64,000 bases of DNA, from NCBI GenBank assembly GCA_021163265.1, contig JAGGXC010000023.1, forward strand, positions 6,378 through 70,377, written 5' to 3'. Shown here piece after piece: positions 4,927-52,700 of the stretch (positions are counted from its first letter, which is position 1; every line of letters starts with the position of its first letter). Origin of the DNA: a bacterium. Its GTDB lineage: Bacteria; Patescibacteriota; Minisyncoccia; Minisyncoccales; JAGGXC01. A model generated the notes under the pieces. The model made no database searches, was not told the origin of the DNA, and saw nothing but the letters and a program-made list of their open reading frames with translations. Both the position numbers and the translations under genes were made by a program.

Positions 4927-4988
4927 TTTAAGATTTTACGTTAACTTTTGAAGATATTTCTTTATATAAACACATTTACTAAAAGAAG

Positions 4989-5882
4989 TCAAGATTTCTT
5001 TACCCAACTCAGCAAGAGCAAAGAGGCAAGACATATAGAGGAATAAGTACCCAATGTAATACCTAAAATCAAAGCAAGACTAAAATACTTTAAAGCAGAA
5101 CTTCCTAAGAAGAAAAGTGCAAAAAGAACAAATAAAGTAGTAAGTGAAGTACTTAATGAACGTGAGAGTGTTTCATTAAGGCTTTTGTTAATTACATCTT
5201 GAAAAGGAAGGTTAGTTCTAATAAGATTTTCTCTTATTCTATCAAAAATTACCACTGTATCATTCACGGAATAACCAAAAACGGTTAACAACGCAGTAAC
5301 AATAGGAACGGTAATCTCTACTCCATAAAATTTACCAAGGAGAGCAAAGACTCCAATAGGAATTAATACATCATGAAACAAAGCAATAAGAGTAGCCACG
5401 CCATATTGCCAAGAACTTACAGGATAAGAAACTTTGCGAAAAGCAAAAGTCACATAAAACATAATCGAAAGCAAAGCTAAAATAAGAACTATTACAGTCT
5501 TTTTTCTTACCTCCTCTCCTACTATAGGTCCAACAAGTTCAAACCTTGCTTCTTCTAAATCTCCTTTCTGTTTCAGGATATCCAAAATCTTCTGATGCAT
5601 TTCTTCTGATATCGCCTGGGTTCTCAAGATGATTCCCTTATCACCTTTTGGCTGAACAGAAAATTCTTGAAGATCTAACCTGGAAAGATCTGATCTAATC
5701 TCTTGAACATTCGGGTTAATATCTTTATAGTCTACCTCAATAATGCTACCTCCAACAAAATCAATTCCCCATCTCAGGCCAAATAAGATCAAGGCAATTA
5801 TGCTAGCCAGAACCAATATTCCCGAAAGGCTAAAAAATAATTTTTTGTGTTTTACAAAGTTTATTTCCATAGTATTTCCCAT
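4989..5882 (-). CDS. secF: Protein translocase subunit SecF.
   Basis: Multi-pass membrane protein with the typical SecF layout, including FVGGSIIEVDY, an Ala/Leu-rich C-terminal transmembrane bundle and FDRIRENL. It sits immediately downstream of secD. The true start may be the internal Met (MEINF..). Confidence 0.9.
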   Translation of the reverse strand: MGNTMEINFVKHKKLFFSLSGILVLASIIALILFGLRWGIDFVGGSIIEVDYKDINPNVQEIRSDLSRLDLQEFSVQPKGDKGIILRTQAISEEMHQKILDILKQKGDLEEARFELVGPIVGEEVRKKTVIVLILALLSIMFYVTFAFRKVSYPVSSWQYGVATLIALFHDVLIPIGVFALLGKFYGVEITVPIVTALLTVFGYSVNDTVVIFDRIRENLIRTNLPFQDVINKSLNETLSRSLSTSLTTLFVLFALFFLGSSALKYFSLALILGITLGTYSSICLASLLLLSWVKKS

Positions 5883-36208: not shown

Positions 36209-36232
36209 GATAACAGCAAGGCAGCTGTTATC
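36209..36232 (-). promoter_or_regulatory. Perfect 9-bp inverted repeat, GATAACAGC-N6-GCTGTTATC, 12 nt upstream of the first gene of the glycan operon.
   Basis: I read it directly from the sequence. The dyad symmetry suggests an operator for a dimeric HTH protein, or alternatively a stem-loop. Confidence 0.35.
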
Positions 36233-36495: not shown

Positions 36496-36536
36496 TTTTC
36501 CTAGAATTACTTTTATTATTTAATAATAGGGCACCT

Positions 36537-36571
36537 GTCAAACCGTGTCAAGAGGGGTCAATAGGTGTCAA
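36537..36571 (-). promoter_or_regulatory. Four direct repeats of TTGACA (plus strand GTCAA) phased at exactly 10 bp, upstream of the HTH_17 gene.
   Basis: Plus-strand GTCAA occurs at 36537, 36547, 36557 and 36567. On the coding strand each reads as the -35 consensus TTGACA, and an AT-rich stretch follows. This looks like an iteron or operator-type array. Confidence 0.45.
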
Positions 36572-36589
36572 ATCGGAGGTTTTCCACAG

Positions 36590-36621
36590 CCAAATTAAAA
36601 CTCCGCTCTTGACGGAGTTTT
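36590..36621 (-). terminator. Rho-independent terminator of the 1735-aa gene (also symmetric).
   Basis: AAAACTCCG, a 7-nt loop and CGGAGTTTT, followed on the minus strand by TTTTAATTT. It starts 23 nt after the stop codon. Confidence 0.6.
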
Positions 36622-36643
36622 AATCACTATCCCCTGTTTTCGA

Positions 36644-39600
36644 TTATCTCGCTCCCAACAATTGATTAAGTTTGGCACGAGTGGTTCTTCCAACTAAACC
36701 AGTCCCTTTAACGAGTCCCCACGGAGCCAGAATCTCCTGAGCATATTTCTCTTGAAAACGGATCACCGCTGATTTGGTTAAGAGACCAAAGTAATTTGTC
36801 TCTTTACCAGGAGAACCAGGACCTGAATTAGCTAATTTGGTGTCAGGATCAGAATTCAAAATGATTTGCAAACATTTAACATCCTCTCCTGTCATACCTT
36901 TTCTCAGATTCCTGTCAAATTTCGAGATAGTACACCTTGATATTGTCCCTGCTCCCTCCACTTGGGCCAATAACTGCTTAAGCTTAGCAATAGCACTCAT
37001 AATTTCGAAAATTTTCTCTTTTATCTCCTCAACAGTCATTTCTGAAATTGGCTTCTCAAAAGTCACAGTAGGAATCTCGGTAATCTCTCCTGCTTGTTTT
37101 GGTATAACTTCTTCTCCTCTAGCAAGAGTCGTAAAAGTCTGATTAGTATAAAATCCAACATTGCCACTCTCGTCTCGCGATTTAATTTGATAATGATAGG
37201 TTGTTTCTGGCAAAAGCCCAGACAAAGTAAGAGAATGGAAAGTAGTTGTAGTAGAAGTTTTTATTTCTAATCCATAATCAGTACTTGTGCCGTATAAAAC
37301 CCATGAAATGGAAGGTTCGTTTGTTTTCCAAGTAATAACAGCGTAAGTATCACCTGGCTTTGCTTCAATGTCAGAAATAGAAGGAGCAACAGTATCTCCT
37401 AAATTCTCTACTGATATCCCTCCCCCTCCGCTGCTTTCTTCTTCCGAAGAAGATTCACTAGGAGTAGCAGAAACTGCGTCGGTAGCTGCTGATTCTTGAT
37501 CAGCATCATTTGCCGCAGAAACCTTGTAATAATAAGTAGTTCCATTAGTTAATCCTGTATCAGTATAGGAAGTATTAGTGGTAGTAGCTAAAAAAGGATA
37601 TTGTGATCCAGATTTACGATAAATATAGTAGAAAGTTGCTCCAGAGGAGCTATCCCAGCTTAATGTTACCTGACTATCACCTGCGGTAGCGTTTAATCCT
37701 GTAGGAGTCGGAGGAGCACCCTCAGAGGATTTACTTGGAGCAAAAGCAGAAAAGTGATCAGTGGAAGCTCTTAGAGTAATTGATTGCAGTGTTGACCAAG
37801 TAGCATCGCTTGGAGTCAGAGTAACAGCAGTAGGAATCTCCACCCAGTTATTGGCTGTGCTGTCATAATAGGAAATCTTTAATTTTCTTGCTTCGTCTAT
37901 GCTAGAAATACCTTCAGCAGAAAGTTCTGATTTTGTCAATTTCATCTCTATATCAACGGATTGATTTAGATTAGTAATCGATCTTCCCTGGTTGTCTCCG
38001 CTGGAATAATAAGCGCTAATTTCTTTAGCTTTTGAAGAGAATATCTTTGCTCCTTGAGCTTCAGGAACTTTCATTGTATTCTGAACCCTTATAGCTACTT
38101 CTGTAGCTTCTGAACCAAGAGCGCCATTAGGAATCTCTACTTTTGTATCTGTTGTCTGAATAACACCTCCTTGAGAAGCCCGAATAGACTGCTCTTTTCT
38201 TTGAGGATTAAAGTCCACAGCAGATAAATTAATAGTAACCCCAGTAGCAGGAGCAGTAATCCTCAAAGGCGTAGAAAGACGATAACCCTCAGCCACCGCT
38301 TCAATTTTCCAGTCTCCCGAAGAAACATTTAATGTAAAAGATCCATCTGCATCAGATACTGTCTGTGCCCATCCTCCTTGACCATTGCTAGCCCAAACCA
38401 TCGCATTAGCTACCGGAGTTGAATTGTACTGAACGGTTCCTGAAATAGTAACACCTGCATTCCGACTTAAAGAAAGAGTTAAACCGGAAATATCAGAGTT
38501 AACAGTAGTGCTGGTTACTGATCCAGAATAACCAGCTTTTCCTACTCCGATGTCATACTCTCCCACTCTTAATCTCAAAGTAAAGGTACCATCTGGATTG
38601 ACCCTTGTTCCTCCTCCTCCATTTGGACCACCTGCCCACACAAAAGCATCGCTTGATGTGCCACTATCAACTGTAACTGTACCCGAAACAGTATAATAAC
38701 TCACACTGCTTAAGTCGATATTGATGGTAGTAGAGGCAGAAACCGTAACAGTAGTAGCCGGAATGGGACCAAAAGCAGGAATCCCTCCCTCAATAGTATA
38801 TTGAGTAGAACCACTGAAAGGAACTTCAATTTTGTAGACATCGTAACTGCTAGAAGTAGAAACTCTCACATCAGTAAAACTATGTCCAAGATTAGAATGA
38901 GCACCAATAAAAACATCTTCAAAGGTATTCCCTGGAGCAAGATGAATTTCCAGAATAGCGGTAGAGCGAGAAATATTTTGACCAGTCAAATCAGAATTAA
39001 CAGCGTTTCCACTATTTAGAATCCCTTTATAAATTTCTCCTCTGCCGGGAACTGCTGCATGAAGGTACAAATTGGAAAGTCCTTTTCTAATTTTAATACT
39101 GTAATTACCAGAGGTATCTGTCTTCGACCATCCTACACCGCTTCCAAACTCCCCTCGGGTAATCCAAACATCAACATCGCTCTGTGCTGATCCATTTTTA
39201 GTCACTTGTCCTGATATAGTAACAAAGTTGCTACTTTCCAAAGTAAAGTTTACAATCGGATTTTGGGAAGCTGTCACAGCAATATTGCTTTGTTCTGTCA
39301 GTTCTCCATATTCTCTGGCAAAGCCGCCAACATGATAATTAGAACAAAGAGGAACATACATTTTATAATATCCCTGGGAATCAGTAAAAGCATGACCTCC
39401 GCCAGGACCGCCTTCACACCAACAATAGATATCAACGCTAGCAACCCCATTACCTGATCCGTCTTTTACATATCCTTCAATATAGGAAGTCGGTGGCTCC
39501 AGTTTAATTGTTGTATCCAGACCTATATCAGTAAGATCAAAATCACTGCTTGAATCAACAAGAATATCTTTTTGAACCGGGAAAGGCATCATTAGACCTG

Positions 39601-41851
39601 TGATTTCAATTTTATAAGAGCCTTCAGTTACATAAAGATCAAAATATCCTTGCGAGTTGGCTTGAGCGGCACTAGATTTTCCATTAGCTTTTGGCTCAAA
39701 GGCTATAATCCACAATTCTCGATATTTAATAGCAGATAAGGGATTACCATCAGCTCCGACTATTCTTCCCCTAATTCTTCTATCTGCTTCAGTAAAAGTA
39801 AAGTTGGCAGATGCTGTAGGGGAACCAGCGCTAACAGTAACTGTTTGCGAAGAAGGATCCAACAACTGGCTTGTCCCACTAACAAATGGAGGAATATGAG
39901 CTTCTATTCGATAAGTTCCTTCGTCTGGTAAAGCAAGGGTGTAGTTTGTTGTACAAGAAGTATTAGTCTTAAAGAAAGAAGGTTGAGGACCTCCCGGACC
40001 CATTTCTGCTTCTACTCCTTCAGGTAAAGCCATTACTGCCACTAATTTGTTCTGCCCTTGAGATGTACAGCTTGTCCCTAATGTAATAGTTCCAGACACT
40101 TTATAAGCGGTAGTTCCCTGGAGAATTAAAACCTGAGGACTGGAAGTAGAATTCCCTATCTGGATCTCTGAGCCAGGAGCAGACAGATAAGCTCCAGAAG
40201 CATCAAAAGCCCAACTAAATCCCATTGAAGAAACATTAGGAACTGTATAGAGATAAGAAGAAGGATCAAAGCTCGTTCCATGAGAATCACCATCATAATA
40301 AACATCTTCTGATGTCATAGAACCAATAAATATCCTCATGTTGGTTGAGGTAGCTATAGGATTGGTGGTGGTAGAATCAACGATTTTGAAATAAAGATTA
40401 CCTAAAACGTCAAAAAATGATGACTCCTCAATATCTGAAATTATACCATCGGATGTTCTTACCTGAACTGGCCCTGACTGAGCACCGGCAGGCACAATAG
40501 CAGTAATAAAAGCATCAGACCAAGCAGTAGTGGAGGCTTCTACTGGCGGTAGAGGTCCTGTAGATGGATTAAATCCTCCACAGAAAAGAAGGGTGCCTGT
40601 AGCATTACCAAAATCAGAACCAGAGATAGTCACGGTAGCCCCGGTGGTAGTGGCATTTGGAGAAATAGAGGAAATTTGAGGGACAGAACCCGAATCTACT
40701 GATAGGGTTGTGGTGGAATAACTAAATGGAAACTGTTCATAGTTGGTATCCTGAATACCTGAGGCCGAGAAACTAATCTGAGAACCAACGGTAAGATCCA
40801 ATCCTCTTATTACAACTTGATTGCCAAAGAAATCTATAAAAGGATATCCGGGCTGGCCGCAATTGGAAAGAGTGGATCCATTTATCACGTAATTAGAACA
40901 GGTCATTACCTGATCTCCTCTCAGGGTTTTGTTGGTATTAAAAATTATTCTATCGCTGAGAGCTTTAATAGATGTTACTGATGGAAGAGCAGGCAAGCTG
41001 TATTGAACAAGAGAGCTTGAAGAATTACCCAAAACATCTATTTCTCCTAACCAGACAGAAGAATAATAACTATTTCCAATATTAAAATTGATCTGGCCTG
41101 ATTGACCTACTGAAGTGGTAGCTAGTAGTGTAGTCCCCCCTGCATCAGCATAAGCATAAAGAAGACCTATTTCCCCTACACTGCTTGTAGACTGTAAATA
41201 ATAGTTTCCTCCTTGATAAAAAGCCTTTATCGAACTAGTATTTGGAACTTGCGAATGAGTATCAGCAGGAAATGACTGAGTAGTAGTTGCATTGATACTT
41301 GCAGGCGTACTCGAAGCAATTACTCCATCTGTATCAATACTTACCTCAAATGCTTGACGCACAGCGCTTCCATTTTCGGGCCATCCATTATCTGTCCAGG
41401 AAGTAGAAGAAGCAGTTTTAACTATAACAAAAAACAACCCTTGAGCAGGAGTAGTAGTAGCAGAAGCAATATCAATAGTAGTAGTAACTCCTATTCCTGA
41501 AACAGTGGTCGTAGTTAAAACCACATCTAAAGAACCATCTGAATCTGTATCTTTTCCTACTCCTACCCAATCAAAACTGCTAGTAGAAAGCTCAGTAGGA
41601 GTAGCATTGGTAGAAGAAACAATAGTAATAATCACACTATCTAAATTTTCTGGTGGAGTGGAGGTAGAAGAAAGCTCTATCATCATAACAGATACCTCTG
41701 ACTCTGCTTTTATCTTTCCATTAACCTGAGGGTTCGGTATCAAAACTGTAGAAGTACCAGAAACTGCTGCCTGACAATCAGTAACGAAGAGGAATAAAAA
41801 AAATCCTCCAAAAAGGAGAAAAAAGAAAATTAGTTTTTTGAAATTGAACAT
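36644..41851 (-). CDS. Giant secreted surface protein (1735 aa) with a signal peptide, Thr/Ser-rich Ig-like and carboxypeptidase-regulatory-like repeats, fibronectin type III domains, a coiled coil and a C-terminal peptidoglycan-binding-like domain.
   Basis: N-terminal signal peptide ending ..VTDCQA. FN3-like domains (PTGLNATAGDSQVTLSW..YYYKV). C-terminal module KLKQLLAQVEG..RCTISKFDRNLRKGMTGEDVKCLQIILNSDPD...AVIRFQEKYA, which resembles PG_binding_1. Confidence 0.7.
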   Translation of the reverse strand: MFNFKKLIFFFLLFGGFFLFLFVTDCQAAVSGTSTVLIPNPQVNGKIKAESEVSVMMIELSSTSTPPENLDSVIITIVSSTNATPTELSTSSFDWVGVGKDTDSDGSLDVVLTTTTVSGIGVTTTIDIASATTTPAQGLFFVIVKTASSTSWTDNGWPENGSAVRQAFEVSIDTDGVIASSTPASINATTTQSFPADTHSQVPNTSSIKAFYQGGNYYLQSTSSVGEIGLLYAYADAGGTTLLATTSVGQSGQINFNIGNSYYSSVWLGEIDVLGNSSSSLVQYSLPALPSVTSIKALSDRIIFNTNKTLRGDQVMTCSNYVINGSTLSNCGQPGYPFIDFFGNQVVIRGLDLTVGSQISFSASGIQDTNYEQFPFSYSTTTLSVDSGSVPQISSISPNATTTGATVTISGSDFGNATGTLLFCGGFNPSTGPLPPVEASTTAWSDAFITAIVPAGAQSGPVQVRTSDGIISDIEESSFFDVLGNLYFKIVDSTTTNPIATSTNMRIFIGSMTSEDVYYDGDSHGTSFDPSSYLYTVPNVSSMGFSWAFDASGAYLSAPGSEIQIGNSTSSPQVLILQGTTAYKVSGTITLGTSCTSQGQNKLVAVMALPEGVEAEMGPGGPQPSFFKTNTSCTTNYTLALPDEGTYRIEAHIPPFVSGTSQLLDPSSQTVTVSAGSPTASANFTFTEADRRIRGRIVGADGNPLSAIKYRELWIIAFEPKANGKSSAAQANSQGYFDLYVTEGSYKIEITGLMMPFPVQKDILVDSSSDFDLTDIGLDTTIKLEPPTSYIEGYVKDGSGNGVASVDIYCWCEGGPGGGHAFTDSQGYYKMYVPLCSNYHVGGFAREYGELTEQSNIAVTASQNPIVNFTLESSNFVTISGQVTKNGSAQSDVDVWITRGEFGSGVGWSKTDTSGNYSIKIRKGLSNLYLHAAVPGRGEIYKGILNSGNAVNSDLTGQNISRSTAILEIHLAPGNTFEDVFIGAHSNLGHSFTDVRVSTSSSYDVYKIEVPFSGSTQYTIEGGIPAFGPIPATTVTVSASTTINIDLSSVSYYTVSGTVTVDSGTSSDAFVWAGGPNGGGGTRVNPDGTFTLRLRVGEYDIGVGKAGYSGSVTSTTVNSDISGLTLSLSRNAGVTISGTVQYNSTPVANAMVWASNGQGGWAQTVSDADGSFTLNVSSGDWKIEAVAEGYRLSTPLRITAPATGVTINLSAVDFNPQRKEQSIRASQGGVIQTTDTKVEIPNGALGSEATEVAIRVQNTMKVPEAQGAKIFSSKAKEISAYYSSGDNQGRSITNLNQSVDIEMKLTKSELSAEGISSIDEARKLKISYYDSTANNWVEIPTAVTLTPSDATWSTLQSITLRASTDHFSAFAPSKSSEGAPPTPTGLNATAGDSQVTLSWDSSSGATFYYIYRKSGSQYPFLATTTNTSYTDTGLTNGTTYYYKVSAANDADQESAATDAVSATPSESSSEEESSGGGGISVENLGDTVAPSISDIEAKPGDTYAVITWKTNEPSISWVLYGTSTDYGLEIKTSTTTTFHSLTLSGLLPETTYHYQIKSRDESGNVGFYTNQTFTTLARGEEVIPKQAGEITEIPTVTFEKPISEMTVEEIKEKIFEIMSAIAKLKQLLAQVEGAGTISRCTISKFDRNLRKGMTGEDVKCLQIILNSDPDTKLANSGPGSPGKETNYFGLLTKSAVIRFQEKYAQEILAPWGLVKGTGLVGRTTRAKLNQLLGAR

Positions 41852-41976
41852 AAACCCAGAAGAATTAATTTTTGGACATTATAAAATTTTCGCACATCAA
41901 AAAACCTTGTCAAGATAGCATACTCACAATTACCCAACTTTACTTAACACCCAGAGATGAGTAAGGTCGGAGAGAA

Positions 41977-43743
41977 TTATCTAGTGACTAGTAAAGCGTT
42001 AATTTTCTTACGAGTCATTGGTCCAACAAACCCAGTTCCCTTCTCTAATCCTAATGGATCCAGAATTTCTTCTCTATATTTTTCTTGAAAACGAATCACT
42101 GCTGCTTTTGTAAGACTAAGAAAGTTTCCTGTAACAAGGCCTTCAGGATATATATCAGAACCTTGAGATTTTAAAAATTCTTGTAAGCATCTCACTTGAG
42201 GATTATGCATCATTCCGAAATAAAGATTTTGATAAAAACCATCACATCCAATCCTCGATTGATTATCTTCTTTATTCTCAATTACTGCCAGTTGAGCTTT
42301 TAACTGATTCAAAAGTTCGGTAAGCTCAGCAATTTTGGCTACCAACTCTTCTTTGGTCATTTCTCCAATTGGTTTTTCCAAATATTTAGAATTAACTTGA
42401 GACAAGCTCTCTTTTTTCTTCTCCTCATATATAGTAGAAGCCTCCCAGAAAAAAGGAATTTCAGGCTCAGAATCTGAGAAATCTGAGATTTTTGTCTCTG
42501 CTAAGGGAATAATAGTTACCGAAGTAATGCTCTCTCCTATTTCAGGAACAGTAATCTCTCCTCTTTGCTCTTTGTCAAGATCAAAGAATCCAAGAGACCA
42601 GTTACCAGAAATATCCCTTAAGAGATAGGGTACTCTAAATAAATTCTGAGGATTGCCGATGAATTTTATTTTTAAAACTCCTTTCCCTCCAATAAACTTA
42701 AACCAATTACCTGTCCAGTTCTTGGTTGTTTGATTAACTCCTAAACTACTCTTCCCTCGAAGAGGTAAAAAATTAATCAAAGGAGTAACTCTAATATTTA
42801 AAAGATTTTTGTTTTTAAAACAGTATTCTCTTCCTAAAGAACAATCATTAGCCAATACCGCAATTGCCCAATCAGTAAAGATATCTGAAAAACTTTTTTG
42901 AAACCCATTCTTTACGAGAGCTTCGTTGATACTTGCAATTCCTGTCTTATTTGAATGTAGAGAATCTACAAGTATTTCTATCCCATATTTCTCTACAAGA
43001 TAATGCACAAACATACTCAAAGCACCGTAATCAGCAGAAACGCCCTTCCATTCTGTAATTGAATCTGACGGATTTCTTAGAAAAGTATTTACTCTATCTT
43101 GAAAATAACTACCCACATATTGGTCGTCATATCCTAATAAAGTAGGGGCGTATTCAGCTCTTGCTTCGTTCAACCAGACATCTTCTTTTGCTTTGTACTT
43201 TCTTTCTTTCTGGTTAAAGGTAATTAGATGGACAAACTCGTGAGCCAAGAAGCTTTTAGCCAAAGGACTAGTAATGTATTCCGCGTTTAAATAAAGCATT
43301 TCTCTTTCATTAGAATTAGGAGCCTGAATCCTAGAATATTCATCAGTATCTCTAAAGTATCCGCGCGCCTCTTTCTTCATTGGATGAATCAACACGGTAA
43401 TATTGTAATCTTTATCAATACCGGGCCTCCATTCAGAACCAAAGGTAGATGTTAAAGTAGGATAAATCACATAATAAAATTCTTCTCCCAAAGAATTCAG
43501 AGATTCTTCTATTTTTTGTTTCTCCTGCGAATCAAGAGATCTCCACCAGCTGTTATCAATATAAAAATTTATCTTTTGTGTCTGGAGTTTTAAAGTGGCA
43601 AGCAACTCGTTTCTTCCTGATGCATCGTAAGAAGGATCAACAAAAAAATTCACTTGTTGACCCAAAGTATCAGCAGAAACAATAACAGGTAAAAAAACAA
43701 AAAACAATCCAATAAAAATTAACTTTATGTCATTCCTCATCAA
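41977..43743 (-). CDS. Secreted gluzincin-type metallopeptidase-like protein with a C-terminal coiled coil and peptidoglycan-binding-like module.
   Basis: Signal peptide MMRNDIKLIFIGLFFVFLPVIVSA. HEFVH (HEXXH) with NEARAEY about 20 aa downstream, arranged like the thermolysin third zinc ligand. The C-terminus, LNQLKAQLAV..VRCLQEFL..AVIRFQEKYREE, is shared with the neighbouring genes. Confidence 0.55.
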   Translation of the reverse strand: MMRNDIKLIFIGLFFVFLPVIVSADTLGQQVNFFVDPSYDASGRNELLATLKLQTQKINFYIDNSWWRSLDSQEKQKIEESLNSLGEEFYYVIYPTLTSTFGSEWRPGIDKDYNITVLIHPMKKEARGYFRDTDEYSRIQAPNSNEREMLYLNAEYITSPLAKSFLAHEFVHLITFNQKERKYKAKEDVWLNEARAEYAPTLLGYDDQYVGSYFQDRVNTFLRNPSDSITEWKGVSADYGALSMFVHYLVEKYGIEILVDSLHSNKTGIASINEALVKNGFQKSFSDIFTDWAIAVLANDCSLGREYCFKNKNLLNIRVTPLINFLPLRGKSSLGVNQTTKNWTGNWFKFIGGKGVLKIKFIGNPQNLFRVPYLLRDISGNWSLGFFDLDKEQRGEITVPEIGESITSVTIIPLAETKISDFSDSEPEIPFFWEASTIYEEKKKESLSQVNSKYLEKPIGEMTKEELVAKIAELTELLNQLKAQLAVIENKEDNQSRIGCDGFYQNLYFGMMHNPQVRCLQEFLKSQGSDIYPEGLVTGNFLSLTKAAVIRFQEKYREEILDPLGLEKGTGFVGPMTRKKINALLVTR

Positions 43744-43775
43744 AATTTATTTTAACAAAAAATAATATGCATGCA

Positions 43776-43818
43776 AGAAAGAAAAAGAAACACTGCCCGC
43801 ATCTGCGGGCAGTGTTTC
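43776..43818 (-). terminator. Strong symmetric rho-independent terminator after the 1134-aa gene.
   Basis: A 14-bp perfect stem, GAAACACTGCCCGC / GCGGGCAGTGTTTC, with a 4-nt loop, flanked by T-runs on both strands. A second GC-rich hairpin (CCCCCGCG..CGTGGGGG) sits at 43828-43857. Confidence 0.6.
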
Positions 43819-43874
43819 TTTTTCAATCCCCCGCGCCGCCACAAGGAAACGTGGGGGTCCGTTTCTATCAACTA

Positions 43875-46800
43875 CTAGAAGGTCAGCACTCCTCCAAGAA
43901 CTGGTGAAGCAAAGGTTCTGGTAGTTTCAATGGCTGCAGACACACCATCATCCCAGTTAAAGTCAGTACCGTCAGCAATGTAGAACTGAGCAACTGTTCC
44001 TGGGTTACCGCCTGAACCAGCAGAAGCATCCCGAGTATCACCAATTACATAGAATGTCTTGGTAGCGCCAGCAGGAATTGCTTTAGGGGAACTTAGAGTG
44101 AATGTCAATTTCTTACCATTAATCGTATCGGCAACAGTCATTGAAGAAGTGGCCAAAACAGTACTCAGATCGCTACTATCATACAAAGAGAATATTCTCG
44201 TCTGAGACGGTGTGGCATGACCTGTACCTGCGCTCCAGCTAATGGTAGTAGTTACTCCATTCAGGTAAGCAGTGTAATCACCAATATTGGTCACGTCAAA
44301 GTAGAAGACATGATCATACTGGCTTGGGAAGTCGCTTCCTGAAGGAGTACTAGCATTAGCCGCAACGGTTACACCAGTCTTGTAGATGTACATCGGATTA
44401 CCTGCGTAAATACCTGTGGTAGTTGCTGTACTTCCGCTGATAGCTCCTTTATAAGTAATTCCCGCAGTGAGACCACTTGCGCTACTGGTATTAATATTCA
44501 ATGCTACGCTTGAACCAGAACTAGCATAAATGATGTAATTGATCTTTGCTTTCACCATCAAGTTCTTGGTGGTACCTTTAGTGATTATCCATGGATCGCT
44601 TGTAAGATCAAAGATAGCTCTTCCGTGACTGTCAAGAGAAGTCAAAGTAGAACCAATCTGAGTAGAACCATCCCATAAACTAATATCATAGATAGAACTT
44701 GTTGGTGCACCACCTCCCAGACTTGCGGTATATACTATCCTTGTCACCTCTATATCTTCTCCTAAACCAGCTGTAAACTTGGTTTGGGTAAAGTCAATAA
44801 GATCACCCGTACCAGCAATTACATTAGCTGAAATTGGAGTATCATCTCCTTGAGCCACTATTAAACTACCACTATCTGCTATGTGTATAGTCTGACCATT
44901 AACATTCTGAGTGTAGTTCACAGAATTATTTGTAGTCTTACCAGTTCCATCAACTTCATCTATCACTATATAACCACCATTAGCAGTGGAAGTGGTAGTC
45001 TTAATATCAGCATAAATGTATATCGGCAACTGCTGAGAAGCCTCAAGACTAATGTAAGGAGAAGGATAGAAAGTGTAGGTAGAACCGCTTGTCAAGGAAG
45101 ATTGAGTAGAACCAATCTGAGTACCGGTCTCTTTCAAGCCGTTATAAACTTTCAAGTTGGTCAAGTTACCAAATCCAAGAGTTCCATCATCTGTTATCTT
45201 GATAGCAGTAATATCAGCACCTTCCGATGCTCCAGCAGTAATAATGAAGGCACCAACCAAGGCTTCTGTCTGACCAGGAACACCGGTTGGATTTGAAGCT
45301 GACCAGTTGCTTACAGCGCTGTTTTGAGCAACAGTTAAGCTTCCAGACTTAATTGTCAATTGATTACCAGCTGAGCTTACTGAGCTTACTGAAGCCAATG
45401 AATCTCTTCCGGTAGCACTCACAGAGTGAATCTTTACAGTAAGTGTCTCGTTACCAGTGTATGAATTACCATTTGCTTTCTTAACATCAGATTTAATCTC
45501 TATTGTGTGTTCCTGACCGTCAGCAGGTACAATGAAAGTACTGCCAAAAGTAAATGTAGTTGCACCAGCAGCTGCATCAGTAGCAGAAGAAGATGCATTC
45601 TTGGTAGATCCCTTCTGAGAACCATCAAAGTATACTTTCATCTGATATAAACCACTTGTACCAATTGATCCGTAAGTGTGAATTACCATCGAACTAATCT
45701 TTACATCTTCTCCGCTAGCTTTAACAGCAAACTTAGCAAGACTTACGTTGGTTCCATCGAGAGGAATATTTCCGCTTGGAGAATCAGAAGCTCTGGTCAA
45801 TGTCAGCTTACCAGTGTTGATGGTAGAAGCAGTGGCTTTCAAAACTGTCCATCCTGAAGCATTAGGTTTGATGTAGACACCATAACCTTGATCATATGCT
45901 TCAATATCGGTCTGCTCCTGAATTGAGAATTGGAAAGTTCTGTTGGTACCTCCAACAATATCAGCTCTCAGATGCATATTCTTGGTCACACCCTTGTCAA
46001 TCACCAATGGGTTGCTACCAAAATCAAATGTTACTGTCTTGTCACTTGCCATATCAGCAATAGTGTCAAGCAGTTGTGTACCGCCATCATATAACTTGAA
46101 GTTCTTCAAGTCACCGGCAGCAGTAGAACCCATATTGGTGAACTTGATCTTTCTGATCTCAATCTTCTGATCCATCGCAGTCAAATTAAAGTTGAATACC
46201 TCAAAATTATCCTGAGGATCAACGCTAGCAGATGGATCAGTGGAAGTAGCAACAGTTAACTTTCCAAGGTCAGAAGCAGTAGCAGTAGTCAGGGTATTTC
46301 CAGTGATTGGGAAACTGCCACTAACCTCTACACCATCTGTAATATAATCGGCAGAATCTATGCTGAAGTAGAATGTCTTTCCTGAACCAGTACCGTTAGC
46401 CAAATCAAACTTGAAAGTAATAGTCTTTGTTCCTCCGGCGGGAACAGTAAACAATCCACTGGAGTTCTCGAAGACCATTACTTTATCAGAGAAAGAATTG
46501 TATTCAGCTAACTTAGTATCGCCATCATAAAGATAACCTTGAGCAATATCGCTATCAGCAGAAATTCCGTTTCTCTTTATCTTCAGAGTGGTTATTGTTA
46601 CATCTGAATCAGTTCCATTAGAGAATGTAACTTTTAAAGCTGGAATTAATGCCTGAGCTCCATCATTTGAAGTGCTGTCAGCAACGATGGTACCTGCAGC
46701 AGGCGTATCAGCAGCTAAAGCTACTGAGAATTCTCCGGTTGTAACACCACCTGTTTCACCTCCAGTCTCGCCACCTGTTTCACCACCTGTTTCGCCGCCT

Positions 46801-47279
46801 CCTGCACCAGCACTCAGAAGCTCATTCAGCTTTGCTCGAGTTGTGGAACCAACAAACCCAGTTCCGCTTGTTAAACCCCAAGGAGAAAGAACTTCTGCTG
46901 CGTATTTCTCTTGGAATTTAATAACAGCTGCCTTGGTCAAAGGACCAAAGTAGGAAGTCTCATTACCAGGAGAACCTGGACCTGAGTCAGCTACTTTTGT
47001 GTCAGGATCAGAGTTAAGTACTATCTGTAAGCACTTAACATCATCTCCTGTCATTCCCATACTCAGGTTGCGGTCAAAGCTGGTAATGGTACACCCTGTA
47101 ATTGTAGCAGCTCCTCCTCCTTGTATTGCGGCTAACTGAGCTTGAAGTTGAGCCAACTGAGCAAGTAATGCATCAATCTGAGCCTGCAGCTCTTCAGCAG
47201 TAACAGCACTTGCACTCGGAGCTATTGCCCAAAATGAAATGCTTAATGCTAATGCGAATGCGAATAACTTTTTTAACAT
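43875..47279 (-). CDS. Large secreted surface protein (1134 aa): signal peptide, N-terminal coiled coil plus peptidoglycan-binding-like module, a GGET linker, then many beta-rich Ig-like repeats.
   Basis: Signal peptide ..APSASA. EELQAQIDALLAQLAQLQAQLAAIQ is followed by CTITSFDRNLSMGMTGDDVKCLQIVLNSDPD..AVIKFQEKYAAE, the same module as in the 1735-aa and 588-aa proteins. Confidence 0.7.
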   Translation of the reverse strand: MLKKLFAFALALSISFWAIAPSASAVTAEELQAQIDALLAQLAQLQAQLAAIQGGGAATITGCTITSFDRNLSMGMTGDDVKCLQIVLNSDPDTKVADSGPGSPGNETSYFGPLTKAAVIKFQEKYAAEVLSPWGLTSGTGFVGSTTRAKLNELLSAGAGGGETGGETGGETGGETGGVTTGEFSVALAADTPAAGTIVADSTSNDGAQALIPALKVTFSNGTDSDVTITTLKIKRNGISADSDIAQGYLYDGDTKLAEYNSFSDKVMVFENSSGLFTVPAGGTKTITFKFDLANGTGSGKTFYFSIDSADYITDGVEVSGSFPITGNTLTTATASDLGKLTVATSTDPSASVDPQDNFEVFNFNLTAMDQKIEIRKIKFTNMGSTAAGDLKNFKLYDGGTQLLDTIADMASDKTVTFDFGSNPLVIDKGVTKNMHLRADIVGGTNRTFQFSIQEQTDIEAYDQGYGVYIKPNASGWTVLKATASTINTGKLTLTRASDSPSGNIPLDGTNVSLAKFAVKASGEDVKISSMVIHTYGSIGTSGLYQMKVYFDGSQKGSTKNASSSATDAAAGATTFTFGSTFIVPADGQEHTIEIKSDVKKANGNSYTGNETLTVKIHSVSATGRDSLASVSSVSSAGNQLTIKSGSLTVAQNSAVSNWSASNPTGVPGQTEALVGAFIITAGASEGADITAIKITDDGTLGFGNLTNLKVYNGLKETGTQIGSTQSSLTSGSTYTFYPSPYISLEASQQLPIYIYADIKTTTSTANGGYIVIDEVDGTGKTTNNSVNYTQNVNGQTIHIADSGSLIVAQGDDTPISANVIAGTGDLIDFTQTKFTAGLGEDIEVTRIVYTASLGGGAPTSSIYDISLWDGSTQIGSTLTSLDSHGRAIFDLTSDPWIITKGTTKNLMVKAKINYIIYASSGSSVALNINTSSASGLTAGITYKGAISGSTATTTGIYAGNPMYIYKTGVTVAANASTPSGSDFPSQYDHVFYFDVTNIGDYTAYLNGVTTTISWSAGTGHATPSQTRIFSLYDSSDLSTVLATSSMTVADTINGKKLTFTLSSPKAIPAGATKTFYVIGDTRDASAGSGGNPGTVAQFYIADGTDFNWDDGVSAAIETTRTFASPVLGGVLTF
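46749..46796 (-). repeat. Four tandem 12-nt repeats encoding (GGET)x4.
   Basis: Plus-strand acctgtttcacc / tccagtctcgcc / acctgtttcacc / acctgtttcgcc. They encode a Gly-Gly-Glu-Thr linker that could vary in length. Confidence 0.5.
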
Positions 47280-47493
47280 AATTGTTTAATCTTTTTTTTT
47301 ATGACCTTTTATTTTAAACCGTGTCGACCTTTTTAGTTTATAAGTCTTCATGGCTAAAGCTTTAAAGCCACGAAGATCACGGTTTTTTTAATTTATTTCT
47401 TCTGCCGCGGCCGACCTTATTATTTAAACCGCGACTTTTTTTCAATAAAATAAATATACTAAAACTTCTCTTTAGTTTCAATATTTCTTCTTT

Positions 47494-48225
47494 TTATTTT
47501 TCCTGTGGATAACTCAAGATAAGAATTTTTTCCAGTGCTTTTGAATATTCCTCTTTATTGTAATCGTCTTTTATTTCTTTCAGTATCTTCTCTTGATCAA
47601 AAGAAAGAGATTGATTCTCTAAATCTTTAATTTCATTCTTCACTACTTCAGCTAAAGCGTTTTTCAATTCTTTAGGTTCCTCTACCACTATCCCCAAAGA
47701 TTCAGCTTTTTCTTTATTTTCTTCCAATTCTTTTGTTTTCTCAACTATCTTTTTTACATCTGGTTTTTCAATCTTTTTTAAGATCTTAGCAGCTTCTGAA
47801 ACATTAGCTTGATATTCTTCAATTAAAGGTGCAAGTTTTTCAATCTTTTTCTTTTCAGCTACTTCAACAAGATTTTCTAATTGCTGATTTGCATATTCCA
47901 GCTGAAGAGTAGGCTGGTCTCTTTCTGGGACAATAGCCAATCTCGCTCTTTCAGTAATCTTTTTGATAGGATAAAAAAGATCGCCTGGTAAACTTTGTTG
48001 AGCAGAAACAAATATACTTCCTAGCAAGAATACTGCTACCAAACTCACTGTTGCATATTTATATCTAAACAGTGCCTCAAAAATATCCCACTTCTTACTG
48101 CGAGAAAAATCCCTTACATTCACTTCTCGGAATATTCTTTTCTTAGTCAAAAAAACCCACTCTTCTCTGGGTTTTATATTCCTTAATTCTTTAATTTTCG
48201 CAATCAATTCTGTTTCGCCCCTCAT
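47494..48225 (-). CDS. Putative anti-sigma factor: a single-pass membrane protein with a helical, possibly DUF5667-like, extracytoplasmic domain.
   Basis: It sits immediately downstream of the ECF sigma gene. There is a cytoplasmic N-terminus, one transmembrane helix (YATVSLVAVFLLGSIFVSA) and an LFYPIKKITERARL motif. The DUF5667 assignment is from memory. Confidence 0.5.
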   Translation of the reverse strand: MRGETELIAKIKELRNIKPREEWVFLTKKRIFREVNVRDFSRSKKWDIFEALFRYKYATVSLVAVFLLGSIFVSAQQSLPGDLFYPIKKITERARLAIVPERDQPTLQLEYANQQLENLVEVAEKKKIEKLAPLIEEYQANVSEAAKILKKIEKPDVKKIVEKTKELEENKEKAESLGIVVEEPKELKNALAEVVKNEIKDLENQSLSFDQEKILKEIKDDYNKEEYSKALEKILILSYPQEK

Positions 48226-48267
48226 TACTATTATGACGCAAAAATTATCTTTTTGTTACACCTAAAT

Positions 48268-48777
48268 CTAAACCAAAGTAGTCTTTTGAAGCTGTTTTTT
48301 TAGAGCTTTCAAAGCGCGATGCAGCATTACCCGCGTGTTTCCTTCTGATCTCCCTATAATTTGAGCTATATCTTGAATAGGAAGATCCTCTATGTAATGA
48401 AGAATAATCATGTTCTGATAGTCTTCTTTTAACTCAGCAAGTGCTTGGCGAATCAAAAGAATATCAGAATCATTCTTAGCTTTTTCTTCAGGATCTGGAC
48501 GAGGATCTGGAAGAGGCCCAGAGTTCTCTGCAGAAACTATTTTTATTTTCTCTTTGTTTCTATAAAAATCTACTATTAAATTACGAGCAATCCGATAGAG
48601 AAATGCCTGAAAATTATCGATTTCTTTGCCATTCTCAAAATATCTCCACCCCCTAAGAAAAGTCTCTGAAGTTAAATCCTCTGCAATCTCCACAGAGTTT
48701 ACTTTAAGAAAAATAAATCTGTAAATTTTGTTTATATATTTGTCGTATATTTTACTAAATTCTGACTGCTTTCCCAT
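48268..48777 (-). CDS. ECF-type sigma-70-family RNA polymerase sigma factor.
   Basis: Region 2 (FLRGWRYFENG..FQAFLYRIARNLIVDFYR) and region 4 (DLPIQDIAQIIGRSEGNTRVMLHRALKALK). The protein is 169 aa. Confidence 0.85.
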   Translation of the reverse strand: MGKQSEFSKIYDKYINKIYRFIFLKVNSVEIAEDLTSETFLRGWRYFENGKEIDNFQAFLYRIARNLIVDFYRNKEKIKIVSAENSGPLPDPRPDPEEKAKNDSDILLIRQALAELKEDYQNMIILHYIEDLPIQDIAQIIGRSEGNTRVMLHRALKALKKQLQKTTLV

Positions 48778-48826
48778 ATTCTAAAGCATAGGAAATAGGA
48801 CATTATGTCCTATCATAAGCATTGTC

Positions 48827-49690
48827 CTATTTTACATTAATGTCCGAACTATTTGTCCTATCAACTAATTGGTAAAAAGTATTATTTCTTTCTCCTATTC
48901 TCCGAACCAATCCTTTTTCCATTAAATAGCGAAAATCTCTTCTTAAGGTTCGCTTACTTACCGAAGGAAAGATTTTTTTAAAATCCTTTACTTGGGCATT
49001 ACCTTTTTCTCGTAATATCTCTAAAATCTTTTTCTGTCTTTCATGTAAATCTTCACTAAAAGATTTCGAATCATTATCTGAATCACTGGAGGCATCTTTA
49101 ATGAAATTCCTTTCTTTTTCCGAAAAACCAAATTTTTCTTCTGAATTACTTAAAGAATTTTTTGGTTCTAATTGAGAAAGCTCTATACCTTCTTCCCTAT
49201 CATCCACACCCTCATCTTCATCTAGATCTCTGTTGCTTTGCTCTTCCTGATCTCTGTTGTTATTTTTTTCTTCAAGTAATGTTTTTTGTTGAGGAAGACT
49301 TTCTTTTTTTGTATCTCTCCACTCAAATTTTTCAACTTCACTAATTTTTATCGCCTGAATTTCTGAAATCTTTTTTAACTCATTACTTATTTTACTATAT
49401 TCTTTTTCGATCTCCAAGAGGTCTTTAGAATCAATCCAGTCCAGCGTTTTCACCACCCCAAAAAAACTAAGCAAGGCTTCTATGTCTTTTCTCGTATTAT
49501 CTATTATTTCTCTTGATTGATAAAATGCCCCTTCCAAAATAAAAATCAGGTTGGCTAGAATATCAGCCCCTAATTTTCTCATTTTCAACCTCAAAGGATC
49601 ATCCTGAGGAAAGAATAAAGTCAACCGATAAAGCTTTGAGGTAAGTTTTACAAAATAATTCTTATCCATCGAATTTGTAGAGTATAGCAA
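48827..49690 (-). CDS. Fusion protein: an N-terminal four-helix-bundle domain (23S rRNA-IVS-protein-like), an acidic low-complexity linker and a C-terminal DeoR-like winged HTH.
   Basis: YRLTLFFPQDDPLRLKMRKLGADILANLIFILEGA resembles the four-helix-bundle family. The C-terminus, ERQKKILEILREKGNAQVKDFKKIFPSVSKRTLRRDFRYLMEKGLVRR, resembles HTH_DeoR. Confidence 0.45.
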   Translation of the reverse strand: MLYSTNSMDKNYFVKLTSKLYRLTLFFPQDDPLRLKMRKLGADILANLIFILEGAFYQSREIIDNTRKDIEALLSFFGVVKTLDWIDSKDLLEIEKEYSKISNELKKISEIQAIKISEVEKFEWRDTKKESLPQQKTLLEEKNNNRDQEEQSNRDLDEDEGVDDREEGIELSQLEPKNSLSNSEEKFGFSEKERNFIKDASSDSDNDSKSFSEDLHERQKKILEILREKGNAQVKDFKKIFPSVSKRTLRRDFRYLMEKGLVRRIGERNNTFYQLVDRTNSSDINVK

Positions 49691-49729
49691 AAATAAAAAA
49701 GAGAGTCAAAGTATTTATCTAAACTCTCT
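49688..49729 (-). terminator. Rho-independent terminator after the LTD protein gene.
   Basis: On the minus strand, AGAGAGT, a 16-nt loop and ACTCTCT, followed by TTTTTTATTTTT. Confidence 0.5.
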
Positions 49730-49737
49730 AACATAAA

Positions 49738-52700
49738 TCAAGGAGTGGGATAAATATCATAGGTATTATTTTCAAAACTCAGATTATCTAAGACAGGGTT
49801 TGAACTTCCCTCAAGTCGAATACCGCAGGATGTCTTATAAGGGGGACCATATCCATAATTTTGATTATGATTCCTAAAAACAGAATCTTCAATTACAGAA
49901 TCAGAATTTGTCAGCCAGACTCCTGCTACTAAATTGCTATCAAATACAGAATTTCTAATCGTGGCTGTTGCATTATCAATCCAGATTGCTCCTTTATAAA
50001 ACACAGGAGTTAAAGGAAGATAGTAATACCACCCTCCACATCTAATTTCTACATTGTCAAAAATCGAACCAGAACTTCTAAGATAGATATAACGCCAACT
50101 TCCAGCTTTGCAATCACCGGTAGGACCAAAAATAATTGGTTTTTCAGATGTTCCTAAAGCAATGAGAGTACCTTGCACTTCTATACTAGGACGACGAACC
50201 ACATCAGATACAAGCTCTATATGTACGCCCGGCTCAATTAAGAGAATAGCGTCCTGAGAAATATAGAATGTTCCCCTAAACGTATAAGGACTCCCTTCTT
50301 TGGTAAGAATAGTGTCATGAGTAAGGGGATCGTTGGTATAATGAAAGAAATCACCAGAGGAATAATTATGCCGACTATTCTCTCTTTTTGGAGTCCCTTG
50401 TATGATGTTGCCGTCAGAATCATGACCGAATATATTAAACCCATCATTCGTCATCCAATTAGAAGGATCGTCTCCTGATAATTGAGGATTTATTCTCTCC
50501 ATAGACATCCGAATCCATCTTTCCTTTATTTTTCTATTTCTTCCGCTGAACCACCCAGAAGAACAATCAACTGAATCTATTAAATTACCAAAAGAATCAC
50601 GCAACTCCAATTTCTCTCCATTGTTTGAGAAAGCCCCTGTGTATATCTGATCTGTCTCTATGTCGCTAATTGTTTGGTTATCACTCCTCTCAAGAAGAAA
50701 GTATCCATTTGCTGGAATAATTCCCGAAAGCGTGGTAGAAGGTGAACCATCTTGAGAATAAAGCTGCCAGCCATCGAGATTAACTTCCTCATCGGTATTA
50801 TTCAAAAGTTCAATCCATTCATCATTAGCATCACTTTTTGTCCCCATCCAAGCAATTTCGTTAATTACAACAGACAAAGTAGGAGCGGGTTTTGAATTAA
50901 TAGTTAGATTTATTGGAATCGAGGAAGTTACAAATCCGTCGGAGACAAAGACAGTAGCTTGATACAAGCCAGGAGAAAGCCCAGATAAATGAGGAGTAAT
51001 TTCTAATGTAGAGGAAGCAACCGCAGGTATTGTTCCGCTAGCCGAACTCAAAACAATCCAATCAGTAGAAGTGGAGCTTGTGGAATATTCAACAAAAGCT
51101 TCCCATATTGTAGAAGTAGAAGATAAGTTTCCTAAAACAAGGCTCTGTGGGAGAGGATTCTGGCCTTCCTCTATGTCGAATTCTATGATAGAAGGCGTTA
51201 TCTTCAAGAAAGAAGAGAAAATTTCTATTGTAGTAGTAGCAGGAGAGCTTGTAGAATAATTGTTGTCTATTACCTCAAGTTTTGCTGTAAAAATACCCGA
51301 AGTAGCATAAGAATAAGCAACTGTAGAAGTTTGAGTAGTGGTAGAATGTCCATCTCCGAAATCCCAGATGAAAGAAGCTATTTCGCCATCTATATCAGTA
51401 GAAGAAGCAGCATTAAAAAATATCTCCTCGCCTATCAGCGCTCTTGATAAAGAAACCTCAAATACAGCAATAGGAGGATTATTTTCAGAAAAGAGATTTT
51501 GTTTTTTAGGTGTAGATTCTTGAAGCTCAAAATCTTTACTGTTGTCATTAGTATCTTGGTATTTATCTGAGACCTCATTCCATTTTCGAGCCAAGGTTTG
51601 TCTCTGTCCTGGATTTTGCGAAAAAGGACTACCTTCTACAAAAGGATCTGTGCTGCTTCCCCATGCTACAGTATCAAGAATATTTTTGTTTCTATCAAAC
51701 AAGGCAATACTATTATTTTTTGCCAATGTTTGAGAAGAAGTTGCGTCGGCATCAATTCCACTTGAGGAAGCGTAGTCAGAATTTACCCAGAGAAAATACC
51801 CCTCAGCAGGAATAACACTTCCCTGTGGAAAAACCCTGATTGAGTATTCTTTACCTAAGGATGTCTTTTTCTTTAATTGAAAACCAGAAATATCCACAGA
51901 ACTGGTAGAAGGATTATAAAATTCCACAAAATCATCAGAAGACCTATCTCCTTCAATTTGAACCTCGGTGATAATAATTTTTGATGAACTTACTGAAATC
52001 GAAGGTTCGGCATCCTCTTGCAAAGAGCTCCCGCTGCCTTTTCCTATATAGGAAAAAGGACTGATACTGTTTTCACGCTTTGGTGTCCCAAATACCTCAT
52101 TAAAGGCAGGTCCGTAGTAAGTATGCCATCCATAACCGCTTTTATTCCTCTCCATTGAACGTTTTTCCTTTTTATTTCCCGCAGGCCAATTTGAGCGGAC
52201 CACGATTCTATCTTCTAAAGAGCAATCTTCGTCAAATAAATACAATTCTTCGTTAGTATCGTTGATTGCTCCTGTATAGATAAAATCGGCTTTGACATTA
52301 GGAACTGAATTATCGTCTGTTCTTTCCAGAAGATAAAATGATTTTGGTAACAAGACGGTACCAGAAGCAAAAACTATTTTAATTTGGTGCTCTTTATCAA
52401 AAATCTGCCATCCCGAAATATCCACAGAGAAATTAGAGATATTTTTTAATTCTATCCACTCGTCACTTGCAGAATTTGAGGTACCCATCCATGCAATTTC
52501 ATTAAATACAATCCTGTTCTGACGAGGACTGACATAGTAAGAAGGCTTTGGACATAAAAGATCTCGTCCTATCTCCTCTTGTCCTATTCCTTCTATTTTT
52601 TTCCACTCTTCTTCTGACTCTTTTTGTTTTATTTCTGGCTTTTCTACCAATTTTGTCTCTTGCTTTTCTTGATTCTCGGTCTCTTCTGAAGAAATATTTA

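Follow-up and report, generated by a model that had tools for sequence, protein, structure and literature searches.

Small winged-helix proteins that bind phased direct repeats form a known class. In Streptomyces, BldC protects four tracts of the smeA-sffA promoter that lie one helical turn from each other, with four subunits bound per DNA (PMC5859096). RdfS, a protein of the HTH_17 (helix-turn-helix) family, forms head-to-tail filaments and binds and represses its own promoter, and the paper describing it groups BldC with the HTH_17 proteins (PMC11963761). Gp36 of mycobacteriophage D29 represses through direct repeats (PMC12266134). Here we describe an array of four 10-bp direct repeats in a 64,000-nt stretch of a patescibacterial genome (assembly GCA_021163265.1, contig JAGGXC010000023.1, positions 6,378 to 70,377; hereafter the window), which lies just upstream of a gene for an 81-residue HTH_17 protein. 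We propose, at a probability of roughly 0.6 and from sequence comparison, structure prediction and analogy, that the array is an autoregulatory operator merged with the promoter of this gene, which heads a polysaccharide gene cluster. The pair would be a new addition to the class named above.

BldC, the best structural match of the window protein, is likewise small, MerR-like and devoid of an effector domain, and its molecules line up head to tail on two or four direct repeats. The window protein is a winged helix without an effector domain, but it is not a winged helix only, since a C-terminal helix is attached to it. The BldC unit is the AT-rich AATTNNNN(C), contacted at few bases and with no strong consensus, whereas the unit described here is a sharp TTGAC(A/C)CC that coincides with the -35 element and does not conform to the AATTNNNN(C) pattern. 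Aligned identity between the two proteins is about 22%, and BldC serves a developmental regulon, whereas here the site is known from the protein's own promoter only. The DNA side of the locus, with three to four direct repeats at 10 bp, fits head-to-tail binding, and on the protein side this mode would follow by analogy.

P2 Cox and 186 Apl belong to the Xis-type recombination directionality factors. Members of this group with solved structures, Pukovnik Xis (4j2n) and RdfS (8dgl), share with the window protein the HTH_17 winged helix; they form cooperative head-to-tail filaments, and several such factors double as repressors. In contrast to them, the gene in question is a conserved chromosomal gene that heads glycan clusters, with no integrase, att site or mobile element beside it, its neighbours encoding surface proteins and glycan enzymes. 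D29 Gp36 is also small, MerR-like and Xis-like, but its repeats are GC-rich (GCGGC) and 15-19 nt apart, and it is phage-encoded. MerR regulators and TnrA/GlnR resemble the present system in having a winged helix followed by a helix and operators that overlap the -35 element and the spacer; GlnR and HiNmlR are among the structural matches, and some promoters of the present family have spacer dyads. Those regulators, however, bind palindromes as symmetric dimers, and MerR promoters have 19-20-bp spacers and are activated through distortion of the DNA, whereas here a 17-bp spacer and direct repeats are found. A classical MerR regulator, with a coiled coil, an effector domain and a palindrome within a 19-20-bp spacer, is thus not what this 81-residue protein and its promoter represent.

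A phased array embedded in a predicted promoter

The four TTGAC cores start at 36571, 36561, 36551 and 36541 on the minus (coding) strand and are spaced by exactly 10 bp, which agrees with the plus-strand GTCAA starts (36537, 36547, 36557 and 36567) and the phase reported in the initial annotation of this DNA. That annotation read every repeat as TTGACA; this holds for repeats 1, 3 and 4, and repeat 2 is the odd one, the hexamers being, in order, TTGACA, TTGACC, TTGACA and TTGACA. The intergenic DNA of the minus strand reads ...TGTGGAAAAcctccgat TTGACACCTA TTGACCCCTC TTGACACGGT TTGACAGGTG ccc TATTAT taaataataaaagtaattctaggaaaa ATG (Table 1). Three TTGAC cores at 10-bp phase did not occur once in 100 dinucleotide-preserving shuffles. 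Pairs of TTGAC in this phase number five in the window against 0.06 expected, three of them within the array, and the array is the sole occurrence in the window of the stricter pair pattern TGAYMC-N4-TGAYMC. These figures confirm the array and exclude chance as its origin. The two pairs outside it, TTGACTTC[AT]CTTGAC at 1935-1949 (+) and 44631-44645 (-), are nearly identical 15-mers that exceed the chance expectation and have no promoter context; they sit inside genes and were not counted as regulon sites.

Conservation was followed in 64 species-level genome loci encoding an ortholog of the HTH protein. Nearly all of them carry two to four units just upstream of the ortholog, always spaced by exactly 10 bp. 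A two-unit pattern gave 70 matches directly upstream of the ortholog, in 51 of the 64 loci, and two matches elsewhere in 640 kb, one of which is the same promoter interrupted by a GIY-YIG gene. Upstream arrays of at least three strict units exist in 33 loci, and the 1.13 Mb compared (both strands counted) contain no other. No second array was found elsewhere in the 64-kb window either. Over the window and the 64 loci, the search for further phased arrays that the initial annotation had called for found the pattern to be nearly confined to this position, and the concern that such arrays might be frequent at random did not come true there. The exact phase and the unit sequence, TTGAC(A/C)CC(T)N, persist over proteins that are 49-95% identical.

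The promoter scan joins the TTGACA of repeat 3, through a 17-nt spacer, to TATTAT, with 11 of 12 positions agreeing with the sigma-70 consensus. The -35 element, the -10 element and a spacer within 16-18 bp that define a sigma-70-type promoter are therefore all predicted here, and the start position would follow from them; the AT-rich, -10-like stretch noticed earlier is this TATTAT. Opposite the other repeats, the -10 position is occupied by ACACGG (repeat 1), ACAGGT (repeat 2) and TAATAA, without the final T (repeat 4). Because repeats 1, 2 and 4 face such poor sequences, the array is not a set of equivalent promoters, and the multi-start promoter suggested at first finds no support: a usable -10 lies 16-18 nt away from repeat 3 only.

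The same geometry is found in the orthologs. The consensus of 40 species is ttTGAcaC.Tt TTGACaCCTc TTGACACC.ttT.atgggtG.tT TAttAT, in which the last strong unit is the -35 element and the -10 hexamer follows 17 nt (16-18) later. Among 43 species, unit 2, often TTGACCCC, has T1 in 91%, T2, G3 and A4 in 100%, C5 in 93%, C7 in 98% and C8 in 91%, and at the position of unit 3 TTGAC is invariant and TTGACA is present in 98%. The nearest relatives have TTGATA or TTGATG as their fourth repeat, and this divergence means that the conserved core consists of three units, the last of which is the -35 element. A second protein clade (RILGH for RIWGS) has the -35 element followed by ATGACAC and then by TGATAtaaT; its array is shifted by one unit and covers the -35 element, the spacer and the extended -10 element. 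The leader of the HTH gene is about 20 nt long in the window. In many orthologs just 6-9 nt separate the -10 element from the ATG, an indication of leaderless transcripts there.

A candidate regulator and its sister family

The 81-residue protein matches Pfam HTH_17 (PF12728) with 45.6 bits against a cut-off of 27 and TIGR01764 ('excise') with 37.7 bits against a cut-off of 28.8. Its membership of the excisionase family, as first annotated, is thus upheld at the level of the domain, and an excisionase role is unsupported. In the AlphaFold2 model (predicted local distance difference test, pLDDT, 82) a beta-alpha-alpha-beta-beta-alpha winged helix is followed by a 24-residue helix (residues 57-80). 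The top solved structures retrieved by Foldseek are the BldC-DNA complexes 6ama (four direct repeats) and 6amk (whiI), with TM-scores of 0.74-0.84 (target-normalised), a probability of 1.00 and, for most chains, a root-mean-square deviation of 1.1-1.6 A over about 50 residues. Pukovnik Xis (4j2n), RacA, RdfS, GlnR and HiNmlR come next, and pSK1 Par is also among the matches; a sequence search against solved structures returned a marginal match to Pukovnik Xis alone (E = 0.27). In the recognition helix, residues S22, S24, T25, K27 and R28 do not vary among the aligned close homologs, and S56, P57, E60, Y64, Y67 and W81 are the invariants of the C-terminal helix region.

Homologs form at least 1145 clusters at E <= 0.001, the best 120 of which are 80-95% identical to the window protein, and the record titles name Nealsonbacteria, Staskawiczbacteria, Magasanikbacteria, Doudnabacteria, Paceibacterota and other Patescibacteria. 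This family (family 1) is widespread in Patescibacteria. A search of 2.9 million viral contigs gave two matches only, both weak and belonging to GC-rich, unrelated HTH_17 proteins. No description of the family in the candidate phyla radiation (CPR), of its operator or of the TTGACACC motif was found in the searchable literature.

A profile search of 1.84 billion representative proteins revealed a sister family (P0249-P0261; 1233 clusters) that is 54% identical to the window protein and has the recognition helix STVTR instead of STIKR. Seven of 10 independent sister loci have three to five units in exact 10-bp phase, and in the other three, which lack an array, the intergenic DNA does not exceed 32 nt. 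In those promoters that could be assigned, one of the units again serves as the -35 element. The sister unit is WTGAC(A/T)(T/A)CTA, as in TAGATGTCA, TAGTAGTCA and ATGACATCTA: position 7, which is C in 79-98% of the family-1 units, is never C in the sister units. In the 10 independent loci the sister gene heads or sits in nucleotide-sugar operons, next to genes for a PseB-like epimerase, NeuB, uridine diphosphate (UDP)-glucose dehydrogenase and DegT, and it often overlaps the next gene. The array accompanies the HTH gene in both families while the unit changes with the protein, which makes the HTH protein the more likely binder and weakens an explanation through MraZ (see below).

The same profile search found relatives with four to five HTH_17 domains per chain. 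Five of them (P0246, P0270, P0272, P0296 and P0300; 263-323 aa) contain five tandem HTH_17 winged helices about 52-55 residues apart. Such chains look like a covalent version of a head-to-tail filament, and those of P0246, P0270 and P0300 fit same-orientation binding to multiple sites.

The proposed switch and competing explanations

According to the model that we favour, the array is an operator fused to a strong sigma-70-type promoter in which repeat 3 provides the -35 element, TATTAT the -10 element and the spacer measures 17 bp. One 81-residue monomer would occupy each 10-bp unit, all monomers having the same orientation and lying on one face of the DNA, and they would assemble cooperatively, head to tail, as BldC, Xis and RdfS do. 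Occupation of units 3 and 4, i.e., of the -35 element and the spacer, would exclude RNA polymerase and result in negative autoregulation. The same switch probably sets the expression of at least the first glycan genes too, because the HTH gene heads same-strand clusters and, in the sister family, reaches into the gene that follows. The initial annotation had already compared the array to operators on which several copies of a regulator bind along one face of the DNA, and the conservation of the array, the unit of the sister family and the predicted fold speak for this. That this protein is the binder, that it binds head to tail, that it represses rather than activates and that it controls downstream genes we infer from sequence and from analogy.

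Several observations weigh against this model. One ortholog locus (L010) is without an array, and no array other than that at the proposed regulator's own promoter was found in the window. Units 1 and 2 lie at the usual positions of activators, and the protein may thus activate. The C-terminal helix, absent in BldC, was modelled at moderate confidence (pLDDT 58-74), and Foldseek gave weak E-values (0.01), no surprise with a domain of only 50 residues. The covariation of unit and protein stems from one split into two families, that is, from a single evolutionary event. Finally, an inverted repeat of 6 bp or more links the spacer with the -35 unit or the unit preceding it in about 30% of ortholog promoters but in 4% of shuffled controls, and a simple head-to-tail model does not explain this inverted copy in the spacer (GGGTGTC or similar).

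The inverted repeat is weak in the window promoter. Elsewhere (L014, L021, L022, L024, L035, L041 and L016) inverted repeats of 6-12 bp involve the spacer just before the -10 element, e.g., GACCCCTATTGA-N7-TCAATAGGGGTC in L035; the sequence of the spacer dyad differs among lineages and its pairing is kept, and a similar dyad brackets the -10 element in L049, L058 and L066. The spacer repeat may be an inverted half-site, or it may be part of an upstream-gene terminator with which the promoter overlaps.

Any other direct-repeat factor could in principle account for the array. An OmpR/PhoB-type response regulator, for example, might control the promoter, with the HTH protein acting on targets elsewhere: response regulators commonly bind direct repeats with a 10-11-bp period, a comparison also drawn by the authors of the BldC work, and units at -45 and -55 are where activators typically bind. 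We consider this unlikely, however, since the array tracks the HTH gene through two families, was seen in front of no other gene across the 640 kb, and belongs to a promoter already so near consensus that an activator is unnecessary; no response-regulator gene conserved nearby was found. MraZ is another candidate, in which case the HTH gene would be a target of MraZ rather than of its own product. MraZ, a regulator of cell division with operators at dcw clusters, binds three to four GTG(G/T) boxes separated by 6-nt spacers, i.e., with a 10-bp period (PMC12957436). Its operators, like the array, consist of direct repeats at a promoter, each box taking one subunit, and the reverse complement of TTGACAC, GTGTCAA, resembles a MraZ box. 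A metagenome scan for three units gave 120 matches, of which 20 have an HTH ortholog downstream, 13 lie at a contig end and 87 are of other kinds, the latter comprising six loci with ATTGACACCnnTTGACACnnTTTGACAC directly 5' of mraZ (PF02381, 92.9 bits) and, for the most part, 10-mer satellites or iteron-like arrays in unrelated DNA, where the flanking open reading frames are mostly spurious. Yet the MraZ proteins of these six loci are those of the Desulfuromonadales Desulfuromusa, Pelobacter and Malonomonas and not of Patescibacteria, and since the loci came from a pattern search of a very large database they are subject to a look-elsewhere effect; AT-rich mraZ loci account for none of the 120 matches. 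MraZ is an AbrB-like protein encoded in the mraZ-rsmH context, and mraZ is absent within 5 kb in the 64 loci and from the window. The arrays themselves fit poorly as well: TTGA is the most conserved part in Patescibacteria, A or C at position 6 turns many units into GGGT rather than GTGK, the window units read GTGT (1 and 3), GGGT (2) and CTGT (4) and so do not conform as a set, and the sister arrays (TAGATGTCA, TAGTAGTCA) have no GTG(G/T) core and are nevertheless linked to the HTH gene. On this indirect evidence, control by MraZ appears highly improbable to us.

The array might also exist without a dedicated binder, as tandem duplications of the -35 element that serve as multiple or overlapping promoters, as an element recruiting RNA polymerase or as a product of slippage. 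Each unit does contain the TTGAC of the -35 consensus, and TTGACAC 10-mer satellites are common in unrelated DNA, to judge from the 87 scan matches of other kinds. This seems very unlikely, as a -10 element at the proper distance is available to repeat 3 only, and phase and unit outlast the divergence of the proteins. The differences between the units, such as the frequent TTGACCCC of unit 2 and the TTGACA with which unit 3 consistently starts, are conserved across species, which argues for selection and against recent slippage. An iteron, a centromere-like or a recombination site, with the HTH protein acting in replication, partition or excision (as an Xis-type or pSK1-Par-like factor), is suggested by the excisionase-family domain, by Xis, RacA and pSK1 Par among the structural matches and by a DnaA-box-like 9-mer adjoining the array. 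Such an explanation is hardly credible: there is no integrase, Rep or Par gene within about 6 kb of the array, the glycan synteny is chromosomal and conserved, and the protein family is essentially absent from the viral contigs. The iterons considered in the initial annotation likewise lost their basis, because the window has neither an initiator gene, nor a switch in GC skew, nor diverging genes, nor a cluster of DnaA boxes. GC skew is negative throughout, all 45 open reading frames of at least 150 aa lie on the minus strand, and DnaA boxes occur at the chance level (7 observed, 7.0 expected), a single one near the array. The window has neither an origin nor a terminus of replication; an origin was rejected on account of the monotonic skew and the chance-level boxes, and a mobile element or phage because the viral matches are GC-rich and unrelated and an integrase/att context is missing.

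Two kinds of arrays lie among these scan matches. Relatives of Desulfuromusa, Pelobacter and Malonomonas (L075, L082, L084, L099, L112 and L180) have three GTGTCAA boxes with a 10-bp period 5' of mraZ; these are probably the MraZ operator of that lineage, which is close to the reverse complement of the unit described here. In AT-rich contigs (L087, L089, L102, L137, L142 and L111), three to seven TTGACAC units with a 10-bp period precede a second family of repeats (TTTGTTCGTG or TTTTCTCCCAG); these look like origin iterons of phages or plasmids unrelated to the HTH family.

Surroundings of the array and implications

The HTH gene heads a co-directional glycan cluster of about 35 kb (955-36197, minus strand), whose first gene, for a nucleoside triphosphate (NTP)-transferase, starts at 36197, 52 nt downstream of the HTH stop codon. 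The cluster further encodes an epimerase, an ATP-sulfurylase/adenosine 5'-phosphosulfate kinase, a Wzx-like flippase, an inositol-monophosphatase-family (CysQ-like) enzyme, a sulfotransferase, methyltransferases, GT2 glycosyltransferases and UDP-glucose dehydrogenase, and resembles a pathway that makes a sulfated surface polysaccharide. Upstream (36644-53997, minus strand) runs a series of genes whose giant products, 1735, 588, 1134 and 1419 aa long, are secreted or surface proteins. Two of these proteins have matches to peptidoglycan-binding domains, and among their genes lie those for an extracytoplasmic function (ECF) sigma factor (48268-48777) and a DUF5667 protein (47494-48225). Within 5 kb in the 64 loci, an epimerase gene recurs in 30, homologs of the peptidoglycan-binding surface proteins in 20 and an NTP-transferase gene in 13, always on the same strand. 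PADLOC gave a weak mad1 match only.

The terminator that the initial annotation placed next to the array is borne out by the fold of the hairpin which, followed by a U-rich run, ends the gene of the 1735-aa surface protein (stop codon 36646-36644); a simple terminator scan overlooked it, since its U-run is taken up by A-U pairs of the hairpin. Another hairpin, between the HTH and NTP-transferase genes, may be a terminator or an attenuator. The RNA fold of the array region is no better than that of shuffled sequence (z = -1.06), and Rfam gave no match in the window and no relevant one in 14 related loci, which speaks against an RNA element at the array. A DnaA box (consensus TTWTNCACA; TGTGGAAAA or TGTGGATAA on the coding strand) lies between the upstream terminator and the array in the window. 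Of 52 relatives, 8 (L008, L009, L012, L019, L027, L030, L048 and L069) also have it there, no more than 70 nt ahead of their array, where the background rate would predict about 0.45. DnaA may thus contribute to regulating the array promoter.

Table 1. Features at the repeat array and the adjoining genes, in window coordinates
Feature	Position	Strand	Remarks
DnaA-box-like 9-mer TTTTCCACA (TGTGGAAAA on the coding strand)	36580..36588	+	8 nt upstream of repeat 1
Terminator-like hairpin	36593..36625	-	RNA fold -20.6 kcal/mol, z = -4.81; 0/200 shuffles equally stable
Repeat unit 1, TTGACACCTA	36562..36571	-	Near -55, counted from the predicted start; corresponds to the '-20' unit of the family consensus, which is more degenerate
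Repeat unit 2, TTGACCCCTC	36552..36561	-	About -45; most conserved unit among 43 species
Repeat unit 3, TTGACACGGT	36542..36551	-	Hexamer 36551-36546 is the predicted -35 element
Repeat unit 4, TTGACAGGTG	36532..36541	-	Within the -35/-10 spacer; poorly conserved across the family
Predicted -10 element TATTAT	36523..36528	-	Promoter scan; putative start site near 36516
Winged-helix HTH_17 protein, 81 aa, with an extra 24-residue C-terminal helix	36250..36495	-	Presumed repeat binder
Hairpin GATAACAGC-N6-GCTGTTATC	36209..36232	-	Between the HTH and NTP-transferase genes; fold -15.0 kcal/mol, z = -4.42

The leader of the orthologs seems to be a hot spot of insertion. In L015 (about 4813-5000), L118 (424-900), L069 (about 1950-2455) and L134, inserted DNA separates the array-promoter from the HTH start codon, and the inserts include a long, nearly perfect hairpin of 162 nt (-53.6 kcal/mol) with a TATGCC duplication at its flanks, similar to a miniature inverted-repeat transposable element, a four-helix-bundle gene resembling those of 23S intervening sequences, a GIY-YIG gene and a 1.5-kb insert. 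In L061 a (CAACTA)n hexanucleotide tandem repeat occupies this place (about 4900-4990). Contigs 2 and 1 of CAWBPO01 (L013 and L015), which belong to one metagenome-assembled genome, carry two HTH copies with near-identical array-promoters and flanks, and this could reflect a segmental duplication or redundancy of the assembly.

A broader and tentative proposal, for which we would claim limited likelihood, is that two families of BldC-like, filament-forming repressors act as dedicated, self-regulated switches of operons for cell-surface glycans in genome-reduced bacteria, with operators built from copies of the -35 element. The operons would include pathways for sulfated polysaccharides and nonulosonic acids, and the repressor and region 4 of the sigma factor would compete for the same bases. 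Lys27 of the recognition helix may go with C at position 7 of the unit and Thr27 with A or T, and the neighbouring DnaA box may provide a link to the replication cycle.

The genomes of Patescibacteria (CPR) are tiny and encode very few transcription factors, gene regulation in these bacteria is almost unstudied, and genetics is mostly impossible in them. The locus described here offers a concrete and testable pair, an 81-residue protein and a sharply defined 10-bp unit over a near-consensus promoter, and the sister family, with another unit and another residue in the recognition helix, constitutes a natural system for specificity swaps. Surface sugars likely matter for the attachment of episymbionts to their hosts, and the pair heads gene clusters of this kind. 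If the proposed binding is true, the head-to-tail mode of BldC and Xis would extend to a sequence-specific operator embedded in a promoter.

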